Below, in pieces: positions 21,644 through 42,323 of a stretch of DNA of 64,000 nucleotides. The notes below the pieces were generated by a model that saw only the letters and a program-made list of their open reading frames with translations, was not told the DNA's origin and made no database searches. How positions within the stretch are numbered: the first letter of the stretch is position 1; each line of letters opens with the position of its first letter. The translations under genes and the position numbers were made by a program. Source of the DNA: Bacteroidales bacterium UBA4181 (lineage in GTDB: Bacteria; Bacteroidota; Bacteroidia; Bacteroidales; UBA4181); assembly GCA_002380425.1 (NCBI GenBank), contig DFUR01000048.1, forward strand, positions 2,890-66,889, read 5' to 3'.

Positions 21644-21667
21644 TAAAAAACCCCGACAGCGCCGGGG
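21644..21667 (-). terminator. Rho-independent terminator after ilvC
   Basis: The minus strand reads CCCCG-gcgctgt-CGGGG followed by TTTTTTATT, 39 nt after the ilvC stop. Confidence 0.7.
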
Positions 21668-21705
21668 TTTTCTGATATTCCGTTCCCTGACCAGCAGGGT
21701 AGGGG

Positions 21706-22755
21706 CTATTTGAGTTTGGGACGAAGCTGCCGCACCGTTGCTCCGGCGCTCCACAACTCGCTTTCGCGCAGTTCCTTGAGCTCTTTGCCCAGAAGTTCCT
21801 TGTAGTTGGCTCCTCCGGTTGACTCCAGAACCCTCTGGCATTCCCGTCCATCTTTTACCCGGGCATACAGATCCTCGAACACCGGCATGACGGCATCGCG
21901 GAATCTGGGCCTCCAGTCAAGCGCACCTCGCTGAGCAGTGGCGGAGCAGTTGGAATACATCCAGTCCATCCCGTTTTCGTCCACAAGACGAATCAGACTC
22001 TGGGTGAGTTCTTCAACCGTTTCATTGAAGGCTTCGCTGGGAGTGTGTCCATTGTCACGCAGCACTTTGTATTGTGCATCCATGATTCCGGCCAAAGCAC
22101 CCATAAGCACGCCCCGTTCTCCGGTGAGGTCGCTGTACACTTCCTGTTCGAAGGAGGTGGGGAAGAGATATCCCGAGCCAATAGCAATCCCCAAAGCCAA
22201 AGTCCGTTCGGTAGCCCGTCCGGTGAAGTCCTGGAAAACAGCGTAGCTGGAGTTGATCCCTGCGCCTGCCAGGAAGTTTCTGCGAACGCTGGTTCCTGAG
22301 CCCTTGGGCGCTACCAGAATCACATCCACATCAGCGGGAGGAATAACCCCTGTGTGGTCCTTGTAGGTGATGGAGAAACCATGGGAGAAATAGAGGGCAT
22401 CGCCCGGTTTGAGGCAGGGTTTGAGAACCGGCCAGATGGCGCGCTGGGCGGCATCAGAAACCAGATACTGGATGATGGTGGCTTTTTGAGCTGCTTCCTC
22501 AATAGAGAAAAGCGTTTTTCCGGGAATCCAGCCGTCAGCTACAGCACGGTCCCAGTCGGCCTTGAATTCCGGGGCCTGACCAATAATTACCTGAACGCCG
22601 TTGTCACGCATATTCAAAGACTGGGCAGGGCCCTGTACTCCGTAGCCGATAACTGCGATGGTTTCGTTCTTGAGGATTTCCCTGGCCTTGCTGAGGGGAA
22701 ATTCTTCGCGGGTTACCACATCTTCCAGAACTCCGCCAAAATTGATTTTTGCCAT
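21706..22755 (-). CDS. ilvC: Ketol-acid reductoisomerase
   Basis: MAKINFGG...IGYGVQGPAQSLNMRDNG Rossmann motif. The start is trimmed to the ATG at 22755. Confidence 0.95.
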   Translation of the reverse strand: MAKINFGGVLEDVVTREEFPLSKAREILKNETIAVIGYGVQGPAQSLNMRDNGVQVIIGQAPEFKADWDRAVADGWIPGKTLFSIEEAAQKATIIQYLVSDAAQRAIWPVLKPCLKPGDALYFSHGFSITYKDHTGVIPPADVDVILVAPKGSGTSVRRNFLAGAGINSSYAVFQDFTGRATERTLALGIAIGSGYLFPTSFEQEVYSDLTGERGVLMGALAGIMDAQYKVLRDNGHTPSEAFNETVEELTQSLIRLVDENGMDWMYSNCSATAQRGALDWRPRFRDAVMPVFEDLYARVKDGRECQRVLESTGGANYKELLGKELKELRESELWSAGATVRQLRPKLK

Positions 22756-22858
22756 TTTCTTGATTTTAGGTTGATTGAACTTAGGCTGAAGCAAAACTTC
22801 GGCCCAAAATTAGAGAAAATTATTTATATGTATGCAGCCTGCTGATATTGAAATTGGT

Positions 22859-23407
22859 TTACCGGCATTCCTGCTTGTTCCGGGTCATACGGTCGATCTC
22901 ATCCAGATAGTCGTTGAGGCGTTCCCGAATCTCCTTCGTGACGGCAATCCGGCCCGAACGGGTGAACTGGCTAACCTTGAAAGGCTCCAGCACTTCGAAC
23001 AGTTCCGTGGTGTCAGCCTTGTGTCCGGTTTTTTCAATGATGGCGAAATCCGGGGTGATTTCCAGTACCCGGGCACCGTACTTCCGCATGATGGGTTCCA
23101 CGTCGTGCAGCATGAATTCCTTGGTGGAAACCTTGTATAAGGCGATTTCCTGACTGACAATCTCATCGTTGACGTGATAGAAGCATTTGAGGACCTCAAC
23201 CTGTTTCTCGATTTGTTTGACCACTTTCTGCACCTGTTCCCGGGTAGAATTCACCACAATGGTGAATTTATGAATTCCCCGGATGGCTGAAGCCGAAACG
23301 GTAAGACTCTCAATATTGAGCCTGCGACGGGTGAAGATAATGGTGATGCGGTTGAGCAGCCCGATGCTGTTCTCTGAAAAGGCGGTGATGGTATATTCCT
23401 GTTCCAT
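22859..23407 (-). CDS. ilvN: Acetolactate synthase small (regulatory, ACT-domain) subunit
   Basis: ITAFSENSIGLLNRITIIFTRRRLNIESLTVS is an ACT domain. Confidence 0.9.
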   Translation of the reverse strand: MEQEYTITAFSENSIGLLNRITIIFTRRRLNIESLTVSASAIRGIHKFTIVVNSTREQVQKVVKQIEKQVEVLKCFYHVNDEIVSQEIALYKVSTKEFMLHDVEPIMRKYGARVLEITPDFAIIEKTGHKADTTELFEVLEPFKVSQFTRSGRIAVTKEIRERLNDYLDEIDRMTRNKQECR

Positions 23408-23419
23408 AACTGTAAGGTG

Positions 23420-25129
23420 CTAATCGGTAAAAAGAATGTCATTCACTTTGGTGCCGGCGGGAATCATGGGAAACACATTCCCTTCCTGCTCTACATTCAC
23501 TTCCAGCAGATAGGCTCCCGGGTGGGCAAACATCCGGTCGATGGCCTGGTGGAGTTCCCCGCGTTCCGAAACCCGTTCCCCGGTGATGTCATAACCTTTG
23601 GCGATGGTGATGAAGTCGGGATTGGTCATAGGGGTGCTGGAATACCTCTTGTCGAAGAATAGTTGTTGCCACTGACGCACCATTCCGAGGTAACCATTGT
23701 TGAGCAGCACAATCTTGACGCCCACGCCCCACTGCATGACAGTGCCCAGTTCCTGAATGGTCATCTGGATGCCACCGTCACCAACGTACAAGATCACTTC
23801 GCGGTCAGGGCAGGCGATTTTGGCTCCGATGGCCGAAGGTAGCCCGAAGCCCATAGTTCCCAGACCACCAGAGGTGACAACAGAGCGGGACTGCTCGACT
23901 CTTGCATACCGGGCCGCCACCATCTGGTGCTGGCCCACATCGGTGGCAACAATGGCCTTTCCACCGGTTTTTTCATTGATTATATTCACCACCTCGGCCA
24001 TTGTTATGGCCTTGCCGTCACCGGGATTCATCTCCCGCTCAATCACGCGGGCGAATTCTTCCTCATGCAGAGGCTTAAACTGACTGATCCACTGGTGATG
24101 CAGGTTGGTGCGGATTTTCTCGGTAATCAGGGGTAGGGTCTGCTTGACGTCGCCGGCAACGGGCACATGGGCTTTGATGTTTTTGTCGATTTCAGCCGGG
24201 TCGATCTCCAGATGAATCACTTTAGCCTGACGGGCAAAATGGTTCACATCACTGGTAACCCTATCGTCAAAACGCATTCCGATGGCAATCAATACGTCGG
24301 CTTCGTTGGTCATTTTGTTGGGGGCCAGGTTGCCGTGCATTCCCAGCATTCCCATGTTCAGAGGGTGTCCGGTAGGTAGCGCGGACATGCCTAGGAGGGT
24401 CCATGCCGCAGGAATGCCCGATTTTTCCAGAAAAGCTTTGAGTTCCTGTTCCGCATTGCCCAGAATCACACCCTGTCCAACCAGAGCCAGAGGGCGTTCA
24501 GCCTTGTTGATCAGGTCGGCAGCTTCCTCAATCCGGGATTTCTGGATGTGTGGTGCCGGGATGTAGCTGCGAATAAAATGACAGGGCTTGTACTGAAACT
24601 CCAGTTGGCCGATTTGAGCATTCTTGGCGAAGTCAATCAGCACCGGACCGGGACGGCCGGACCGGGCGATGTAGAATGCCTTGGCCAGCGTGCAGGGGAT
24701 ATCTTCGGCACGGGTAATCTGGATGTTCCATTTTGTGATGGGCATTGAGATGCCTATCACGTCGGTCTCCTGAAAGGCATCGGTGCCCAGGAGGCTTGCA
24801 CCCACCTGTCCGGTAATGCACACCAGGGGGGTTGAATCGATCATGGCATCAGCAATGCCAGTGAGCAGGTTGGTGGCGCCAGGTCCGGAGGTGGCGATGG
24901 CCACGCCCACTCTTCCTGATGCCCGGGCATAGCCCTGGGCCGCGTGCACAGCACCCTGTTCATGACGGGTAAGGATATGCCTGATGCGGTCGCGGTACTT
25001 GTAGAGACTGTCGTACACCGGCATGATGGCGCCCCCGGGATAGCCGAACAGGGTGTCCACTCCTTCGGCGAGCAAACACTCAATAAGGGCGTCGCCTCCG
25101 GAGATACGGGCTTTGGTTGAGTCGGTCAT
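23420..25129 (-). CDS. ilvB: Acetolactate synthase large subunit (ThDP-dependent)
   Basis: [26 protein letters not shown] and the ThDP motif [14 protein letters not shown]...NNG. Confidence 0.95.
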
Positions 25130-25146
25130 AGGATAATCATTAAAGG

Positions 25147-26985
25147 TTAAAGAATTCTGATGGCTCCCGTGTCGGCGGAGCTAACCATTTTGGCATAAGT
25201 CTGGAGTGCTTTGGACACTATCCGGTCGCGGTTGCGTGGGGTGAAGGCAAGCTCACCGCGCGCCAGTTCTTCGGCCCGGCGTGACTCCATCTCCTGTTCG
25301 GAAATGCCAGCCTGAATGCTGCGGCCGGGAATATCAATCTCGATCATGTCTCCGGTGCGGATCAGCCCGATCTCTCCTCCGGCGGCTGCTTCGGGAGAAA
25401 CATGGCCAATGGACAATCCTGAGGTTCCTCCTGAGAACCGCCCGTCGGTGAGCAGGGCACAAGCTTCTCCCAGTTTCCGTGATTTGATGTAGGAGGTGGG
25501 ATAGAGCATTTCCTGCATCCCGGGCCCGCCCCGGGGGCCTTCGTAACGAATCACCACAACGTCACCGGCCTGAATGTCCTTCAGGATGCCCTCGCAGGCG
25601 TCTTCCTGAGACTCAAATACAACAGCTTTTCCTTTGAAATGGAAGATTTTCTCGCTCACTCCGGCGGTCTTGACGATGCAGCCGTTACGGGCAATATTTC
25701 CGTACAGCACAGCCAGTCCGCCGTCCGTACTGTAAGCGTGAGCGATATCACGGATACACCCGTTGGCCCGGTCGGTGTCAGGTTGGTCGTAACGGGTGTC
25801 CTGAGAGCCCATCACCAGGTTGAACTTGCCCCCCGGAGCAGCCGTGGCACGTTCCAGCGCTTCTGAGGTAGCAGAGGGACGGACAATGTCGTTCTGCGCA
25901 ATGGCTTCACCTAATGTGAGACCGTCAGCACGGTACACAGAAGTGTCCAGCAACCCACCCCGCTCCAGTGCCCCCAGAATCGAAAGAATGCCTCCGGCGC
26001 GGTTGACATCTTCGATATGGTACTTGAGGGAGTTGGGAGCCACCTTACAGACAACGGGAATCTTTCGGGAGAGCATGTCAATATCCTTCATGGAAAAGTC
26101 CACGCCGGCTTCCTGGGCAATCGCCAGCAGGTGCAGCACGGTGTTGGTGGAACCGCCCATAGCAATATCCAGTGACATGGCGTTCAAAAAGGCTGACTTG
26201 GTCGCAATAGAGCGGGGCAGGACCTTGTTGTTGCCTTCGAAGTAATACTCTCTGGCCATCTCGACAATCCTTCGGGCTGCTTTGCGGAACAGAGAAAGTC
26301 TTTGGGCATGCGTGGCCAGAATCGTTCCGTTTCCGGGGAGTGCCATTCCGAGAGCCTCGTTGAGGCAGTTCATGGAATTGGCGGTGAACATTCCGGAGCA
26401 GGAGCCGCAGGTGGGGCAGGCATTCTGTTCAACCTGATTCAGGGTGCGCTCTTCCACAGAGTCGTCGGCGCCCATCACCATCACATCTACCAGATCGTAC
26501 TTTTTTCCATCGACCTCTCCGGCCTCCATGGGCCCGCCGGAAACAAAGATGGCCGGAATATTCAGGCGCATGGCAGCCATGAGCATGCCCGGGGTGATCT
26601 TGTCGCAGTTGCTGATGCAAATAATCGCATCCACGGTGTGGGCATTGCACATATACTCTACACTGTCGGCAATCAAATCCCTGGAGGGAAGGGAATAGAG
26701 CATCCCTCCGTGTCCCATGGCGATACCATCGTCGATGGCAATGGTATTGAACTCGGCGGCGAAGCAGCCCTCGGCCTCAATAAGTTTTTTGAGCTCCTGT
26801 CCGATATGGTGCAGGTGTACATGCCCGGGGACAAACTGTGTGAATGAGTTCACAATGCCGATGACAGGTTTGCCAAAATGTTCTTCTCTCATGCCGTTGG
26901 CCCTCCAGAGGCTTCTGGCTCCGGCCATTCTTCGGCCTGAGGTGCTGGTGTTGCTTCGAAGTTCAGTTCTCATGGTGTGTTTCAT
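25147..26985 (-). CDS. ilvD: Dihydroxy-acid dehydratase
   Basis: [32 protein letters not shown] and [17 protein letters not shown] Fe-S motifs. The start is placed at the ATG at 26985; the track used TTG at 27000, and an ATG at 26973 is also possible. Confidence 0.93.
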
Positions 26986-27002
26986 TATGGATATATTCAA
27001 AC

Positions 27003-27030
27003 AAAAAACCCTCCCCGGAAGTGGGAAGGG
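27003..27030 (-). terminator. Attenuator/terminator hairpin between the ilv leader peptide and ilvD
   Basis: Minus-strand RNA is CCCUUCCC-ACUUCC-GGGGAGGG (8 bp including one G.U) followed by UUUUUUGUUUG. On the plus strand the same stem would carry a C.A mismatch, which supports minus-strand function. Confidence 0.7.
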
Positions 27031-27061
27031 TTTTTAGATTATACTATACAACGCTCCCACA

Positions 27062-27127
27062 TCAGTTTTTGCCGACGACGACGACTACGAGAGCGACGAG
27101 CAGACTTATGTTTTGCGTAAGGTTCAT
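27062..27127 (-). CDS. ilv operon leader peptide (21 aa, MNLTQNISLLVALVVVVVGKN)
   Basis: Hand translation of the minus strand gives ATG at 27127-27125 and TGA at 27064-27062. Eleven of 21 codons are Ile/Leu/Val, including five consecutive Val codons (27088-27074). It lies between a TAnnTTTG box and the terminator hairpin, directly upstream of ilvD. Confidence 0.6.
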   Translation of the reverse strand: MNLTQNISLLVALVVVVVGKN

Positions 27128-27143
27128 AATCATTTATATGCCG

Positions 27144-27151
27144 CAAATATA
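27144..27151 (-). promoter_or_regulatory. Candidate -7 promoter box (TATATTTG) for the ilv leader transcript
   Basis: TAnnTTTG match on the minus strand, 16 nt upstream of the leader ATG. Confidence 0.3.
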
Positions 27152-27172
27152 ACAAAAAAATATTTCACCGGT

Positions 27173-27799
27173 TTATTCCGGGAAAAAATTTGTTTTTGAG
27201 GCAATAAATTCGCATTCCTGAAGTTTGTGGCTTCTGGTCAGATCAATAATCTCCATCTGGACCCGGTAGATGGTGTGTGGGTCTCCCGGGTCGTTTCCGC
27301 CGGACCGTGAAATACTGCCTGTAATGAGGACATCAGCAGAGGCTCCCGTTGCCCAGTGGTGAAGGACCTCTGTCCGGGTGAACTGCTCCTGGCCGGGATA
27401 TCCCCTGCGCAGGGCAGCCCTTGCATCTGCCCCCGGGATCAGGCTTGCCTGCGTCCATCCGGAAAGCAATGATTCCATATCCCGGCAAAAAACTTCCGCG
27501 CTTATTGTTCCGTGGGCCAGGTTGTGCAACGGGGCAATCAGGATGGCAGGCTCCCGGTGGTAGGTTCTGCGAAACTCCCGCACCCATTGGCCCGAAGAAA
27601 TCTGCCGGGCGAGAAAGAGTGCAGCTTGTCGGGAATCAGCATCGTTCCATGGACCCCGAGCCAGAGGAGCCGTATCGGAAATTACGACAGGTCCGGCAGG
27701 CAAATCCGGAATGGATTGTGTTGCAGGCGAAGTCATGCGGCATCCGGGCATGAGAAGCCAGAGCAGCGACAGAAGGGAACAAAGAAAAGCAGTCTTCAT
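27173..27799 (-). CDS. Lipoprotein, possibly LpoB/COG3417-like
   Basis: Lipobox LLMPGC after a signal peptide. The C-terminal layout loosely resembles LpoB. Family assignment is weak. Confidence 0.55.
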   Translation of the reverse strand: MKTAFLCSLLSLLWLLMPGCRMTSPATQSIPDLPAGPVVISDTAPLARGPWNDADSRQAALFLARQISSGQWVREFRRTYHREPAILIAPLHNLAHGTISAEVFCRDMESLLSGWTQASLIPGADARAALRRGYPGQEQFTRTEVLHHWATGASADVLITGSISRSGGNDPGDPHTIYRVQMEIIDLTRSHKLQECEFIASKTNFFPE

Positions 27800-27804
27800 T
27801 GTGA

Positions 27805-29520
27805 TTACCAGTAAAAGCTCGTGGTAAAGGTACTGAGATTATCTTTTGCATCTCTGACCGATAGGTCAATCTGGTGGTTCTGACCGGGCTGAGTCCGTTC
27901 CGGGCGTAGAGTATGTACAAACAGATTGTTTTTGGCATCATAGTCGAACAGCGCCCACTGGCCGTCAATGAGGGCCACGAACGAAGCAATGCCCGACAGG
28001 TCATCGGTGACTGTAATCCGGATGACACCGTCTTCGGGGGAGGTCTCCGCAGAAGGCATAAACAGAGGAGTGATGCTTGGTGGAACGGTGTCGGTGGCAA
28101 TGGCATAGGTGCCGAAGGAAAAGGTGGATCCGGTCACCATGCCGCCCTCCCACGCACCTCCGAGCGCACTCAGGGAGCTCTTGTTTACCATTACCAGCAG
28201 AGCTTTTGTTCTGAGGTGTTCCGGAAGGCTGTCGTCCCGGATGGACAACTGAATCCGCTTGTGTAGCGGAGTGAATTCCGGACCCAGCGTGTGCAGGGCT
28301 GAGCAGGTATTGCCCAGCCCAGGCTGTGTACTGTATTCCGGGGTAAGTGGGGTGTACAGGGCACCGGCAGGAATGGTGGCTTCGAAACCGGAACCGGAGA
28401 TGTTTTTCTCAGCGTCCCAGTCTTCGGGAAGGTTGCTTTTCTGTGAGGATTCTGAAGGACGGTAACGGAGCGTCAGGGATAGCTCGGAAATATTGCCAGA
28501 TGCATCCCCCACCATGATTCGAATAAGGTGCAGACCGGGCTGCACGAATGTCAGGACGCCCCTGTCCTGCTGCTTCAGGATGGTCTCGCTTTTGTTGCCC
28601 GGCTGGACGTAGAGCAGGTGGATAAGGCGGTTCTGGCTGCGGAATGTTGGATAATCAATCATGCTGTTGACATACCGGGTGTTGTCAAAGGAGAACCGAC
28701 TCATTTCCCGAGCATAGATTTCCCGGCCATCAACCAGGAGTTTGAGTGAATAGGGCCCGCAGTAGGCGGTGGAGCCGTCCGATGGGTCATAGGTCTGAAT
28801 TCCCAGCCCGATTTGGCCGGAGATTTCGGGAATGGCCTTTCCGGAAAGCTGGTAGGCTTGTCCTGTCAGCCTTGTAGAAAAGGTGGCCGCCTGAGCTTTG
28901 CCGTCAACTGTGGAGAAGGAATCCAGTGGATACAATGCCAGCAGTCGAATCAGGGGTGGTTCGGAGTCGCCGACACGGAATCCGTGGAGCAAGGGGTTCA
29001 GGATGTGCTGGGTGGCATCATCGCGCACCTCGAAATGCAGATGCGGGCCGGATGAACTGCCCGAATTCCCGGACCAGGCGATGGTGTCTCCAGCTCTGAC
29101 GGGCAGTTCTCCGGCTTTAGGGAATATATCCACCTGGAACTGTTCCTGGGCATATTGGATGGCCTCCACATAGGCGGAGATGGTTGGGTGGAACCGTTCG
29201 AGGTGGGCGCTGACCGTCATCAGTCCGTTTGGGTGGCTGATGTACAGGGCCTTTCCGAATCCTCCGGGCTCTACCTTAATGCGCGCAACGTACCCGTCAG
29301 CAACGGCCCTCACCGGCCAACCTGTTTTTTCCATGGTTCTGAAGTCCAGCCCCGAGTGCAGGTGGTTGGTTCTGGGTTCTCCAAAGGTGCCCGAAAGGGC
29401 GGGGGAAAGCTCCAGAGGAGGGATGAATCCTGGCTGGTCCTGAGCTTTCAGACCTTCTGTTTGCAGCAGCAGGAACAGCAAGAGGATGAGAGAGTGGAAA
29501 CGCATGGGCTTTTGCTGCAA
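27805..29520 (-). CDS. M23 family metallopeptidase (LytM-type) with a long C-terminal extension
   Basis: Signal peptide plus zinc ligand motifs HLHSGLDF and [15 protein letters not shown]. Confidence 0.85.
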   Translation of the reverse strand: MQQKPMRFHSLILLLFLLLQTEGLKAQDQPGFIPPLELSPALSGTFGEPRTNHLHSGLDFRTMEKTGWPVRAVADGYVARIKVEPGGFGKALYISHPNGLMTVSAHLERFHPTISAYVEAIQYAQEQFQVDIFPKAGELPVRAGDTIAWSGNSGSSSGPHLHFEVRDDATQHILNPLLHGFRVGDSEPPLIRLLALYPLDSFSTVDGKAQAATFSTRLTGQAYQLSGKAIPEISGQIGLGIQTYDPSDGSTAYCGPYSLKLLVDGREIYAREMSRFSFDNTRYVNSMIDYPTFRSQNRLIHLLYVQPGNKSETILKQQDRGVLTFVQPGLHLIRIMVGDASGNISELSLTLRYRPSESSQKSNLPEDWDAEKNISGSGFEATIPAGALYTPLTPEYSTQPGLGNTCSALHTLGPEFTPLHKRIQLSIRDDSLPEHLRTKALLVMVNKSSLSALGGAWEGGMVTGSTFSFGTYAIATDTVPPSITPLFMPSAETSPEDGVIRITVTDDLSGIASFVALIDGQWALFDYDAKNNLFVHTLRPERTQPGQNHQIDLSVRDAKDNLSTFTTSFYW

Positions 29521-40800: not shown

Positions 40801-42323
40801 CCCAGTTGATTTTCGATCTGAAAAATGTCAATCCCGAGGCCTGTGTGAGTGTTAAGCTGGTTTCTGAGAGCGGGGTGGGTACCGTGGCTGCCGGTGTGGC
40901 CAAGGCCAAGGCTGACCTGATTCTGATCAGTGGTTGTGAGGGAGGTACGGGTGCCAGTCCCTCGAGTTCCATCAAACATGCTGGTCTCCCCGTTGAGTTA
41001 GGACTGGCAGAAACGCAACAGACTCTGGTGCTCAACAATCTGCGCGGGAAAGTTCGGTTGCAGGCCGACGGTCAGTTTAAGACAGGACGGGATGTGATTG
41101 TAGCCGCCTTGCTGGGGGCTGAAGAATTTGGCTTTGCCACCAGCGCGCTGATTGTACTGGGTTGTGTCATGATGCGGAAGTGTCACCTCAATACTTGTCC
41201 GGTGGGCGTGGCCACCCAGAACGAAGAGCTTAGGCGCCGGTTTGTGGGCCGTTCCGAATACCTGATACATTTCTTCACGTTCCTCGCTCAGGAAGTGCGG
41301 GAATACCTTGCGGAAATGGGTTTTACCCGGTTAGATCAAATCGTGGGACGTACTGATTTGCTGGAGTTTGTGCCCGAGAAGGGACATCCCAAATCGTCCA
41401 GGGTGGATCTTACAGGTCTGCTCTACCTGCCTGCTCAGGCCGATCACCATCCCATCCGCCAGGTTACAGTCCAGCATCATAAGGTGGAGCAGATTCAGGA
41501 CCGGGAACTCATAGCTTTGGCTCGTCCCTCCATTGAGTCCCAGAGTCCGATGGAATGTCACCGGCAGATCAGGAATACCGACCGCTCTGCTGGAGCCATG
41601 CTCTCGGGGGTGATTGCCCGGAAATATGGTCAGGAAGGTTTGCCCGAAGACACGATTCGTTGTTGTTTTAAGGGGTCTGCCGGGCAGAGTTTTGGTGCAT
41701 TTCTGGTGCGGGGGGTAACCTTCCGCCTGGAGGGAGATGCCAATGATTATCTGGGAAAGGGCCTTTCCGGAGGAAAAATTATCGTGGTTCCCCCTACTGG
41801 AGCTGCCTTTGCCCCGGAGGCGAACATTATTGCCGGTAATACCCTGCTTTACGGAGCGACCTCCGGGGAGGTTTACATCAACGGTATCGTTGGGGAGCGC
41901 TTCTGTGTCCGCAACAGCGGTGCCATTGCCGTGGTGGAGGGCGCTGGAGACCATTGCTGTGAGTACATGACCGGGGGGCGTGCTGTGATTCTGGGTGCCA
42001 CCGGGAGAAACTTTGCCGCCGGGATGAGCGGGGGCATTGCTTATGTGTGGAATGTGAATGGTGACTTTGATTTCTTTTGCAACATGGAAATGGTGGAGCT
42101 ATCCCTGATTGAGAACAGTGCAGACGAGCGGGAGTTGAAAGGCTTGATTGAAACGCATCTGGCTCATACGTCCAGCCCTCTGGCGGGCAGGATTCTTGCC
42201 GACTGGCCCCGCTATTTGCAGCAGTTTATCAAGGTGATGCCCATTGAGTATAAAAAAGTGCTGCATGATGAGAAGATTGAGGCCATTCGTAAGAAGATCG
42301 CACATGTGGAGTACGATTATTAG
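37818..42323 (+). CDS. gltB: Glutamate synthase large subunit
   Basis: N-terminal CGVG amidotransferase Cys, FMN/Fe-S central domains, C-terminal GXGG repeats; 1501 aa. Confidence 0.96.
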   Translation: MNNFIPEAQGLYRPDYERDGCGVGLVVQIKGDRSHDVVEKGLQVLEHMVHRGAESADNKTGDGAGILLQIPHEFILLQGIPVPERGHYGTGLVFLPRLEQEAELCMSIIRETIQKEGLSLLAVRDVPVASETLGEISRSHEPLIKQIFVVGPCKHEALERKLYVVRKKIERAVSRSGMSGKKSFYVVSLSGTRIVYKGMLTSDQLRSYFPDLSHPNLTSAIALVHSRFSTNTFPTWDLAQPFRLLGHNGEINTIRGNRYWMEARESVLKSEALGDMSELWPVIQPGMSDSASLDNVLEFLVMSGKSLPHALSMLVPESWNDKNPISDDLKAFYEYHSIFMEPWDGPATLLFSDGRFAGGMLDRNGLRPARYLITRDDLMVVASETGVLSFEPSQIREKGRLKPGKMLMVDTLKGEVLYDAELKETLAREYPYREWLNRNRIHLEDLSSGREVRAELGNLSTLMQVFGYYKEDLERLIVPMALDGKEPVSSMGNDTPLAVLSQKPQRLFQYFRQLFAQVTNPPIDPIREELVMSLTGYIGSLQKNMLDPVPEHCKVVKLKSPVLNNVQFDLIEHLRYKGFATEVLPMLFPASGGARALEKSLHELCLRAEQAVDSGIRYIVLSDRGVNASMAPIPSLLAVSAVHHHLIEQRKRVQIDLVVESAEPREVMHFALLFGFGANAVNPYLVFAVLHDLVKKSELGMDYQTAEAHYIKAVQKGLLKVMSKMGISTLRSYRGAQIFEAVGISSGVLDKYFRGVVSRIGGIDLQDMARETLEAHARGFSGEPGSVLENMGHYAYRRRGEFHAWNPETIARLQLATRSGDYARFKEYTQLVDQKEQRTFLRDFLQFRKNPIPLDEVEPVSEITRRFVTGAMSYGSISKEAHEALALAMNALGGRSNTGEGGEDTLRFKPRPDGTSARSAIKQVASGRFGVTTEYLVNADELQIKIAQGAKPGEGGQLPGFKVDQIIAKTRHSIPGISLISPPPHHDIYSIEDLAQLIFDLKNVNPEACVSVKLVSESGVGTVAAGVAKAKADLILISGCEGGTGASPSSSIKHAGLPVELGLAETQQTLVLNNLRGKVRLQADGQFKTGRDVIVAALLGAEEFGFATSALIVLGCVMMRKCHLNTCPVGVATQNEELRRRFVGRSEYLIHFFTFLAQEVREYLAEMGFTRLDQIVGRTDLLEFVPEKGHPKSSRVDLTGLLYLPAQADHHPIRQVTVQHHKVEQIQDRELIALARPSIESQSPMECHRQIRNTDRSAGAMLSGVIARKYGQEGLPEDTIRCCFKGSAGQSFGAFLVRGVTFRLEGDANDYLGKGLSGGKIIVVPPTGAAFAPEANIIAGNTLLYGATSGEVYINGIVGERFCVRNSGAIAVVEGAGDHCCEYMTGGRAVILGATGRNFAAGMSGGIAYVWNVNGDFDFFCNMEMVELSLIENSADERELKGLIETHLAHTSSPLAGRILADWPRYLQQFIKVMPIEYKKVLHDEKIEAIRKKIAHVEYDY

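Follow-up and report, generated by a model that had tools for sequence, protein, structure and literature searches.

A predicted valine-rich leader-peptide attenuator upstream of the ilvDBNC operon in a Bacteroidales bacterium, and related leaders in Bacteroidota

The trp, his, leu, thr, ilvBN and ilvGMEDA operons of enterobacteria are controlled by attenuators of one mechanistic type: a ribosome that has come to the stop codon of a short leader open reading frame (ORF) masks the antiterminator strand of the nascent RNA, while a ribosome stalled on the regulatory codons leaves this strand free. The trpL leader of Escherichia coli serves as the reference for the four-segment model of this process. 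Bacteroidota do not rely on Shine-Dalgarno initiation, and candidate attenuators in Bacteroidetes/Chlorobi were reportedly proposed by Vitreschak and colleagues in 2004. Here we analyse an element located directly upstream of the ilvD-ilvB-ilvN-ilvC operon on contig DFUR01000048.1 of Bacteroidales bacterium UBA4181, within a stretch of 64,000 nucleotides (nt) that is called the window below and is numbered from its first letter. Judging by its sequence, this element is very probably a classical ribosome-mediated (leader-peptide) transcription attenuator of the operon, and valine is predicted to be the amino acid mainly sensed.

A branched-chain leader is already described in the same phylum. 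It is the Ile/Val-rich peptide MRKFNIIPSIIIAIVIITTAKGML of 25 amino acids (aa), encoded ahead of ilvE in Flavobacterium psychrophilum in a 5' region that is structured and has been mapped (Guerin et al. 2021, PMC9723704, SI Appendix D9, Table S7). With the support of transcriptome data its authors interpret this leader as leader-peptide attenuation and name "leader peptide attenuation elements" for ilvE, hisG, pheA and trpE, so that His, Phe and Trp leaders accompany it; the 5' regions of these elements were mapped, and read-through at the leader operons of hisG, pheA and trpE was described as conditional (PMC9723704). The cis-regulatory motif Bacteroid-trp (RF01692) stands upstream of trp genes in Bacteroidota (Weinberg et al. 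2010, PMC2864571), and small ORFs "reminiscent of leader peptides" were noticed in the transcriptome of Bacteroides thetaiotaomicron (PMC7366714). No mutational or biochemical dissection of any Bacteroidota leader-peptide attenuator was found in our literature searches. A preliminary description of the locus, made from its letters, had called the evidence in Bacteroidota sparse; this holds for experiments, but not for predictions, which do exist, for instance for the ilvE leader (PMC9723704).

With ivbL (ilvBN) and ilvL (ilvGMEDA) of E. coli and Salmonella the window locus shares a short Val/Leu(/Ile)-rich leader ORF before branched-chain genes and an intrinsic terminator just before the first structural gene. 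Unlike them, it belongs to another phylum with another promoter type, has no detectable sequence or covariance-model relationship to them, lacks a Shine-Dalgarno sequence, precedes genes in the order ilvD-B-N-C and contains no demonstrable helix between segments 1 and 2 (1:2 helix). The likeness to E. coli trpL consists in the regulatory codons, the stop near segment 2 and the mutually exclusive 2:3 and 3:4 helices; the amino acid is different, however, and a 1:2 helix together with a pause site is documented for trp only. The F. psychrophilum ilvE leader is likewise a branched-chain leader in a structured ilv 5' region, but it is Ile-rich and precedes ilvE in a 437-nt 5' region, whereas the window leader is Val-rich and precedes ilvD in the 187-nt gap that separates this gene from its upstream neighbour. 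As to Bacteroid-trp, a trpB leader of the same genome, MNKIMATYWWWRLRILTS, has the promoter box, spacing and layout in common with the ilv leader; the motif itself senses Trp, and the ilv leader has no RF01692 match.

The leader and its putative promoter are composed of the following parts.
27144–27151, minus strand: putative Bacteroidota-type -7 box TAtaTTTG, then CG (from the sequence and the consensus TAnnTTTG)
27062–27127, minus strand: leader ORF MNLTQNISLLVALVVVVVGKN with stop TGA (from the sequence, the ORF list and translation)
27074–27088, minus strand: five-Val run GTA GTC GTC GTC GTC, the proposed stalling site (from the sequence)

The ORF opens with the ATG at 27127-27125, runs for 21 codons (ATG AAC CTT ACG CAA AAC ATA AGT CTG CTC GTC GCT CTC GTA GTC GTC GTC GTC GGC AAA AAC TGA) and closes with the TGA at 27064-27062. 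Eleven of its 21 codons specify Ile, Leu or Val (Leu3, Ile7, Leu9, Leu10, Val11, Leu13 and Val14-18), and the broader block of these residues extends over 27074-27109. The length of the frame, its eleven branched-chain codons and the five consecutive valines on the minus strand had all been pointed out in the preliminary description, and each was found again at the same place. An alternative in-frame ATG at 27133, two codons further 5', would give a 23-aa product MIMNL..., so that both variants can be written as M(IM)NLTQNISLLVALVVVVVGKN. The start at 27127 is favoured by homologues from the window's own family, which begin with MNL... or MTNN... as read directly in their upstream regions, and by promoter spacing, since TAnnTTTGCG sits 15-17 nt before the ATG in all three leaders (ilv, leuA and trpB) of this genome. 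No Shine-Dalgarno sequence was seen ahead of the ilvD leader ORF. The ORF is unannotated, and standard pipelines do not annotate elements of this kind.

TAnnTTTG is the established consensus of Bacteroides promoters. In the window the box lies 16 nt before the ATG at 27127, between the stop of the upstream gene (27173) and the leader. A sigma-70 promoter scan was run on the region as well, but it is not applicable to Bacteroidota and was uninformative.

Leader codons tend to be the rarer synonyms. Valine is encoded by five GTC and one GTA, and the sole isoleucine by ATA, while valine usage in ilvDBNC is GTG 55, GTT 28, GTC 20 and GTA 13, and ATA makes up 4 of the 136 Ile codons in the four ilv genes. 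Such a choice might sharpen the response to particular tRNA isoacceptors.

The RNA segments between the five-Val run and ilvD, together with a possible segment 1, are listed below.
27089–27095, minus strand: possible segment 1, CGCUCUC, a pairing partner of segment 2 (centroid fold; -7.7 kcal/mol for the helix alone)
27052–27060, minus strand: segment 2, GUGGGAGCG, the first seven bases of which are the 5' strand of the antiterminator (sequence and fold; aligns with GUGAGRAWGG of the relatives)
27021–27030, minus strand: segment 3, CCCUUCCCAC, shared by the terminator (as its 5' arm) and the antiterminator (as its 3' strand) (sequence, fold and alignments)
27009–27016, minus strand: segment 4, GGGGAGGG, the 3' arm of the terminator (sequence, fold and alignments)
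27003–27035, minus strand: complete intrinsic terminator with A5, a G+C-rich stem of 8 base pairs, a 6-nt loop and U6 (fold and consensus scan)

The hairpin consists of CCCUUCCC (27030-27023), the loop ACUUCC and GGGGAGGG (27016-27009), is followed by UUUUUU (27008-27003) and was recovered both by a consensus terminator scan and by folding. Its core alone has an energy of -14.2 kcal/mol; adding the adjoining A5 and U5 extends the stem to 13 pairs and lowers the energy to -19.6 kcal/mol. The fold of the 160-nt leader gave z = -2.76 relative to shuffles. The ATG of ilvD (26985) is located 17 nt past the U-tract, close to the distance of about 18 nt given for the hairpin in the preliminary description. 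The antiterminator strand GUGGGAG occupies 27060-27054, starts one base past the leader stop and is complementary to CUUCCCAC (27028-27021). This strand, its partner in the terminator arm and the hairpin had been delineated before from the letters, and our analysis reproduced them base for base. When the transcript was cut before segment 4, the 2:3 pairing formed at -12.1 kcal/mol irrespective of whether the ORF was masked. One more helix, absent from the preliminary description, is conceivable: CGCUCUC (27095-27089), which immediately precedes the Val run, is a potential pairing partner of GGGAGCG (27058-27052). If formed, this 1:2 helix would complete the classical four-segment layout. Its mean z across the family is only -1.05, and it had no statistical support either in the window or in the family.

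Conservation of the element was followed upstream of ilvD in relatives, taken as one genome per species (79 loci fetched, best IlvD identity 76%). At each locus the 300 nt ahead of ilvD were examined for short ORFs opening with ATG, and the segment richest in Ile, Leu and Val (ILV) gave the score. Of the 79 loci, 43 had a mini-ORF with 7 or more ILV residues out of 8, with 0 of 79 reverse complements and 1 of 395 dinucleotide shuffles as controls. A comparative search for similar branched-chain-rich mini-ORFs before ilvD had been proposed with the preliminary description, and its outcome supports attenuation. Carriers make up nearly all loci labelled Bacteroidota and include Prolixibacteraceae, Marinilabiliales-type genera and many metagenome-assembled genomes of Bacteroidales; the Desulfobulbia, spirochaete and Opitutales ilvD loci among the 79 were without the element. 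Almost every carrier has a strong terminator after the mini-ORF, the stop of which is located about 90-100 nt before ilvD. In at least 10 ilvD loci the nearest long upstream ORF is divergent.

When 30 relatives were searched at the nucleotide level with the DNA of the leader, most matches covered the ilvD coding part alone. Outside one genome of the same family the leader has diverged too far for BLAST, and upstream regions were therefore read directly. ILV leaders were thereby found in nearly all own-family genomes where ilvD was found. Their peptides are exemplified by MYRALFLLVVLVAVVIGKN, MNLISISHIVSLVVVVLISKN, MTNNSLILSHIVVVLISKN and MGRINTLLSLLVVVLVSNRKRM, and also by ...VVLVAVVIGKN*UGAUGUGAGGACGG; UGA(U)GUGAGRAUGG comes next and is followed by the terminator arm CCCUUCUCRC.

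If the segment after the stop codon has to pair with the terminator arm, traces of this should be visible in the relatives, and they are. For 47 units the duplex energy was calculated between the 5' terminator arm and the segment that surrounds and follows the stop. The mean was -13.6 kcal/mol for the arm of the same locus, -10.6 for arms of other loci and -6.9 for shuffled segments, and none of 20000 permutations matched the observed mean of self-pairing. In an alignment of 59 leader units (A2; the window and 58 others) the terminator was paired in 97.1% of cases, with compensatory changes on both sides at 8 of its 11 pairs. The antiterminator was paired in 89.2%, as against 46-55% when the partner was slid by 1-3 columns; it showed compensatory changes at 7 of 11 pairs, and its covariation score was reached by 0 of 500 shuffles. 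Both mutually exclusive helices covary. The dependence is best seen in one trio of columns: wherever the terminator arm has A (16 units), the post-stop base is always U, and U is also present in the 3' arm; arms with U have mostly A as their partners. The same can be traced in the window itself by means of an alignment of its 12 closest homologues (A1). At one position of the antiterminator the window alone has G-C and the others A-U, and the same arm position in the terminator is C-G in the window and U-A in the others. This three-way change (A>G in segment 2, U>C in segment 3, A>G in segment 4) kept both helices intact.

The stop codon has a largely constant place in this architecture. U, G and A occupy alignment columns 55-57 in 52, 55 and 52 of the 59 units, and in most of them (A2 columns 54-65; loci L001-L095) the UGA lies inside GUGAGRAWGG, the conserved and purine-rich strand of the antiterminator. 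Roughly one unit in three keeps a U-U or U-C mismatch at one fixed position of the antiterminator (17 units in the count of the trio; 23 of 56 cells unpaired at that pair).

Based on these data one can propose the following course of events, in which coupling of translation to transcription is assumed and the reach of the ribosome in both states is taken from standard ribosome footprints. Transcription would start a few bases past the TAtaTTTG box, leaving a 5' untranslated region (UTR) of roughly 10 nt, and a ribosome would begin to translate the 21 leader codons before RNA polymerase has finished transcribing the leader. With an ample supply of charged tRNA-Val (tRNA-Leu and tRNA-Ile would matter less), the ribosome would reach the UGA, and its footprint of about 12-15 nt downstream (approximately 27064-27052) would cover GUGGGAGCG (27060-27052). 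Segment 3 would then be free to pair with segment 4, the terminator would form and transcription would stop at about 27003. If charged tRNA-Val is scarce, the ribosome would stall on the five Val codons (27088-27074) and, having Val14-18 in its A site, would extend with its leading edge at most to about the stop codon. The exposed GUGGGAG could then pair with newly transcribed CUUCCCAC, sequestering the 5' arm of the terminator and allowing read-through into ilvD. In transcripts that are not translated at all, segment 1 might hold segment 2, which would also favour termination, although the evidence for this step is weak.

The same genome appears to contain other leaders of this type. All 1147 terminator-like hairpins of the 2.66-Mb assembly were scanned for an upstream ORF that is 8-45 codons long, has its end 5-75 nt away from the stem and contains at least 7 Ile/Leu/Val in an 8-residue window, and the ilvD leader was the only site satisfying this. 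The trpB leader with its Trp-Trp-Trp run and terminator turned up independently in the same scan. The leader of leuA was missed there and recovered later by a covariance model, so the hairpin scan should be considered specific but not sensitive.
Contig C66, about 41160–41283 (locus L081), minus strand: Trp leader MNKIMATYWWWRLRILTS and strong terminator before trpB (hairpin scan and weak Bacteroid-trp match)
Contig C19, ATG at about 34404, minus strand: Leu/Ile leader MTRSTIDILLAIILILQG (5 Ile, 4 Leu, no Val) and terminator before leuA (covariance model)

The trp leader scored 28 bits with the Rfam model of Bacteroid-trp, the threshold of which is 49, and standard annotation would therefore miss it. 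In the leuA leader the post-stop segment GCAGGAAUGG pairs with an arm of the terminator GCCAUUCUGC...ACAGAAUGGC-U9, and the genes downstream are leuA-leuC-leuD and a second gene resembling isopropylmalate/citramalate synthases. The Val-rich leader before ilvD and the Leu/Ile-rich one before leuA suggest that sensing is divided between the two operons. A different case was met on contig C68 (384-474, plus strand), where an extremely basic 30-aa ORF, MPSGKKRKRHKMSTHKRKKRLRKNRHKKKK, is followed by a terminator-like hairpin of 12 base pairs and then by a long ORF; it looks like a genuine gene of a small basic protein and not like a leader.

A covariance model (R1) was built from A2 and run on 401 Bacteroidota genomes. 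At E <= 1e-3 it found matches in 109 of them, but some of these are leaders for His, Trp or Thr and, probably, ordinary terminators; since R1 is not specific to ILV leaders, no phylum-wide frequency is given. Among the best 30 loci there were ten ILV leaders before ilvD, seven ILV leaders before ilvE, three HHHH leaders before hisG, three Trp leaders before trpE and one Ile/Thr leader before a thrA-like aspartokinase. We define the R1 group by its location upstream of ilvD or ilvE and by a block of ILV codons, a stop in or next to GUGAGRAWGG, a spacer and a terminator of the form CCWUUCUCAC...GAGAAWGG. The window has all these attributes and an R1 score of 59 bits, though it is itself part of the seed. 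An Rfam scan of 26000-28000 at permissive E-values gave sub-threshold, terminator-driven matches only, the best of which, Phe_leader, reached 22.9 bits against a threshold of 55 and relied on the terminator alone. The gathering threshold was not reached by Leu_leader, Thr_leader, His_leader, Trp_leader, Phe_leader (RF01859), Leu/phe leader (RF01743) or Bacteroid-trp (RF01692), and the ilvD leader therefore falls outside every curated family.

It is possible, though we rate this tentative suggestion somewhat below an even chance, that the ilvD leader is one of a family of amino-acid attenuators that extends through the phylum Bacteroidota, is uncatalogued in Rfam and is built on a shared chassis. 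This chassis may comprise a -7 box about 15-17 nt before the ATG, an implied 5' UTR of about 10 nt, the lack of a Shine-Dalgarno sequence, a stop embedded in the GUGAGRAWGG strand, a CCWUUCUC-type terminator and frequent tandem duplication, and between pathways only the regulatory codons may be swapped (Val/Ile/Leu, Leu/Ile, Thr/Ile or Trp). If so, such leaders would offer a simple and direct handle on the question whether, and in what way, the lead ribosome is coupled to RNA polymerase under non-canonical initiation. As a general claim, a chassis common to leaders of all specificities was rejected; the His leaders found have a different terminator sequence.

Two complete units of ILV leader and terminator arranged in tandem before a single ilv gene recur in several Bacteroidota. 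The peptides of such units differ, as in MKNLAIIINVVLLVVVVNPAK followed by MEHFSTYILVVVIVVLLRFC, and tandem units may act as a two-stage attenuator.
Loci L007, L011, L022, L033 and L039; paired R1 matches in G137:C1, G203:C121, G081:C23, G165:C1 and G227:C97: tandem ILV units

Genes downstream of the leader code for enzymes of the shared Val/Ile/Leu pathway, as assigned by NCBIfam equivalog models.
25147–26985, minus strand: ilvD, dihydroxy-acid dehydratase, the first regulated gene (NCBIfam NF009103, 1023 bits)
23420–25129, minus strand: ilvB, acetolactate synthase large subunit (TIGR00118, 699 bits)
22859–23407, minus strand: ilvN, acetolactate synthase small subunit (TIGR00119, 103 bits)
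21706–22794, minus strand: ilvC, ketol-acid reductoisomerase, the last gene of the operon (TIGR00465, 305 bits)
21645–21673, minus strand: terminator-like hairpin closing ilvDBNC before recF (consensus scan: 13-pair stem, then a T-run)
On the other side of the leader there is an ORF of 208 aa (27173-27799, minus strand), which has a lipoprotein-type signal (MKTAFLCSLLSLLWLLMPGC) with a lipobox-like N-terminus LMPGC; no NCBIfam model matched it.

Since this lipoprotein-like gene is co-oriented with ilvD and ends 138 nt before the hairpin, and since the hairpin has an A-tract besides its U-tract, as general-purpose terminators do, one could take it for the plain terminator of the upstream gene and the Val-rich ORF for a chance frame; the former was the fallback offered by the preliminary description. 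We find it hardly credible. The hairpin is not explicable as a terminator of the upstream gene because at least 10 loci have a divergent gene in this place, and the ORF travels together with its hairpin and ilvD in dozens of genomes whatever is located upstream. Chance frames of such composition are as rare as the reverse-strand and shuffled controls indicate (0/79 and 1/395), the post-stop segment covaries with the hairpin arm, and the putative -7 box separates the ORF from the upstream gene. It is also very improbable that the peptide itself matters, for instance as a membrane peptide or toxin, with the terminator ending its own transcript. The peptide is indeed hydrophobic enough to resemble a transmembrane segment, and some attenuator leaders have additional functions in trans, as is reported for peTrpL of Sinorhizobium (PMC7298713). 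What homologues preserve, however, is the Ile/Leu/Val composition and neither the residue sequence nor the length; Phe, Met, Trp and Ala, which are hydrophobic too, occur rarely; the corresponding leaders of hisG, trpE and thrA have runs of His, Trp and Thr/Ile; and covariation of the antiterminator is left unexplained by any function of the peptide.

Attenuation by the leader peptide has weak sides of its own. The 2:3 helix of the window is short, with 7 pairs, of which a terminal one is G-U, and an energy of -6.6 kcal/mol when calculated by itself, and the antiterminator is among the weaker ones of the family (-10.7 against the mean of -13.6 kcal/mol). The 1:2 helix of the window, at -14.6, differs by less than one standard deviation from codon-shuffled ORFs (-13.0 +/- 2.5). 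There is no clear -33 TTTG at the expected spacing from the putative -7 box, and the presumed transcription start is placed solely by this consensus box. Most Alistipes/Rikenellaceae ilvD loci are without the element, and our literature searches found no demonstration of coupling between the lead ribosome and RNA polymerase in Bacteroidota. Weakness of the window antiterminator and the assumed status of this coupling in the phylum leave some room for a different scheme, in which translation of the leader regulates ilvDBNC by a route other than the 2:3/3:4 switch. Candidate routes would be Rho-dependent polarity when the leader is untranslated, regulation at the level of ilvD translation, or recognition of the leader RNA by a protein or small molecule. 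With just 17 nt between the end of the terminator and the ATG of ilvD, the hairpin could also influence initiation at this gene. Such a scheme is nevertheless improbable in view of the canonical intrinsic terminator with its U6 tract, the covariation of both mutually exclusive helices, the position of the stop in or next to the antiterminator strand in nearly all 59 units and the lack of a match to any known riboswitch or leader family. Ribosome-mediated attenuation, as put forward in the preliminary description, is supported by the geometry of the element, its conservation in relatives and the covariation of the antiterminator.

Since the mechanism is a textbook one and has already been predicted in the phylum, general understanding of attenuation is not changed by this finding. 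For the uncultured Bacteroidales lineage it means that ilvDBNC gains a predicted regulatory feature missed by standard pipelines, and that at least three amino-acid pathways of the genome (ilv, leu and trp) are predicted to be under ribosome-sensed attenuation. The ILV leader group is widespread in Bacteroidota and absent from Rfam, and the alignment of 59 units together with R1 could seed a new family and improve annotation. These leaders would find their main wider use as a small experimental system in which coupling of transcription and translation can be tested in bacteria without Shine-Dalgarno initiation.

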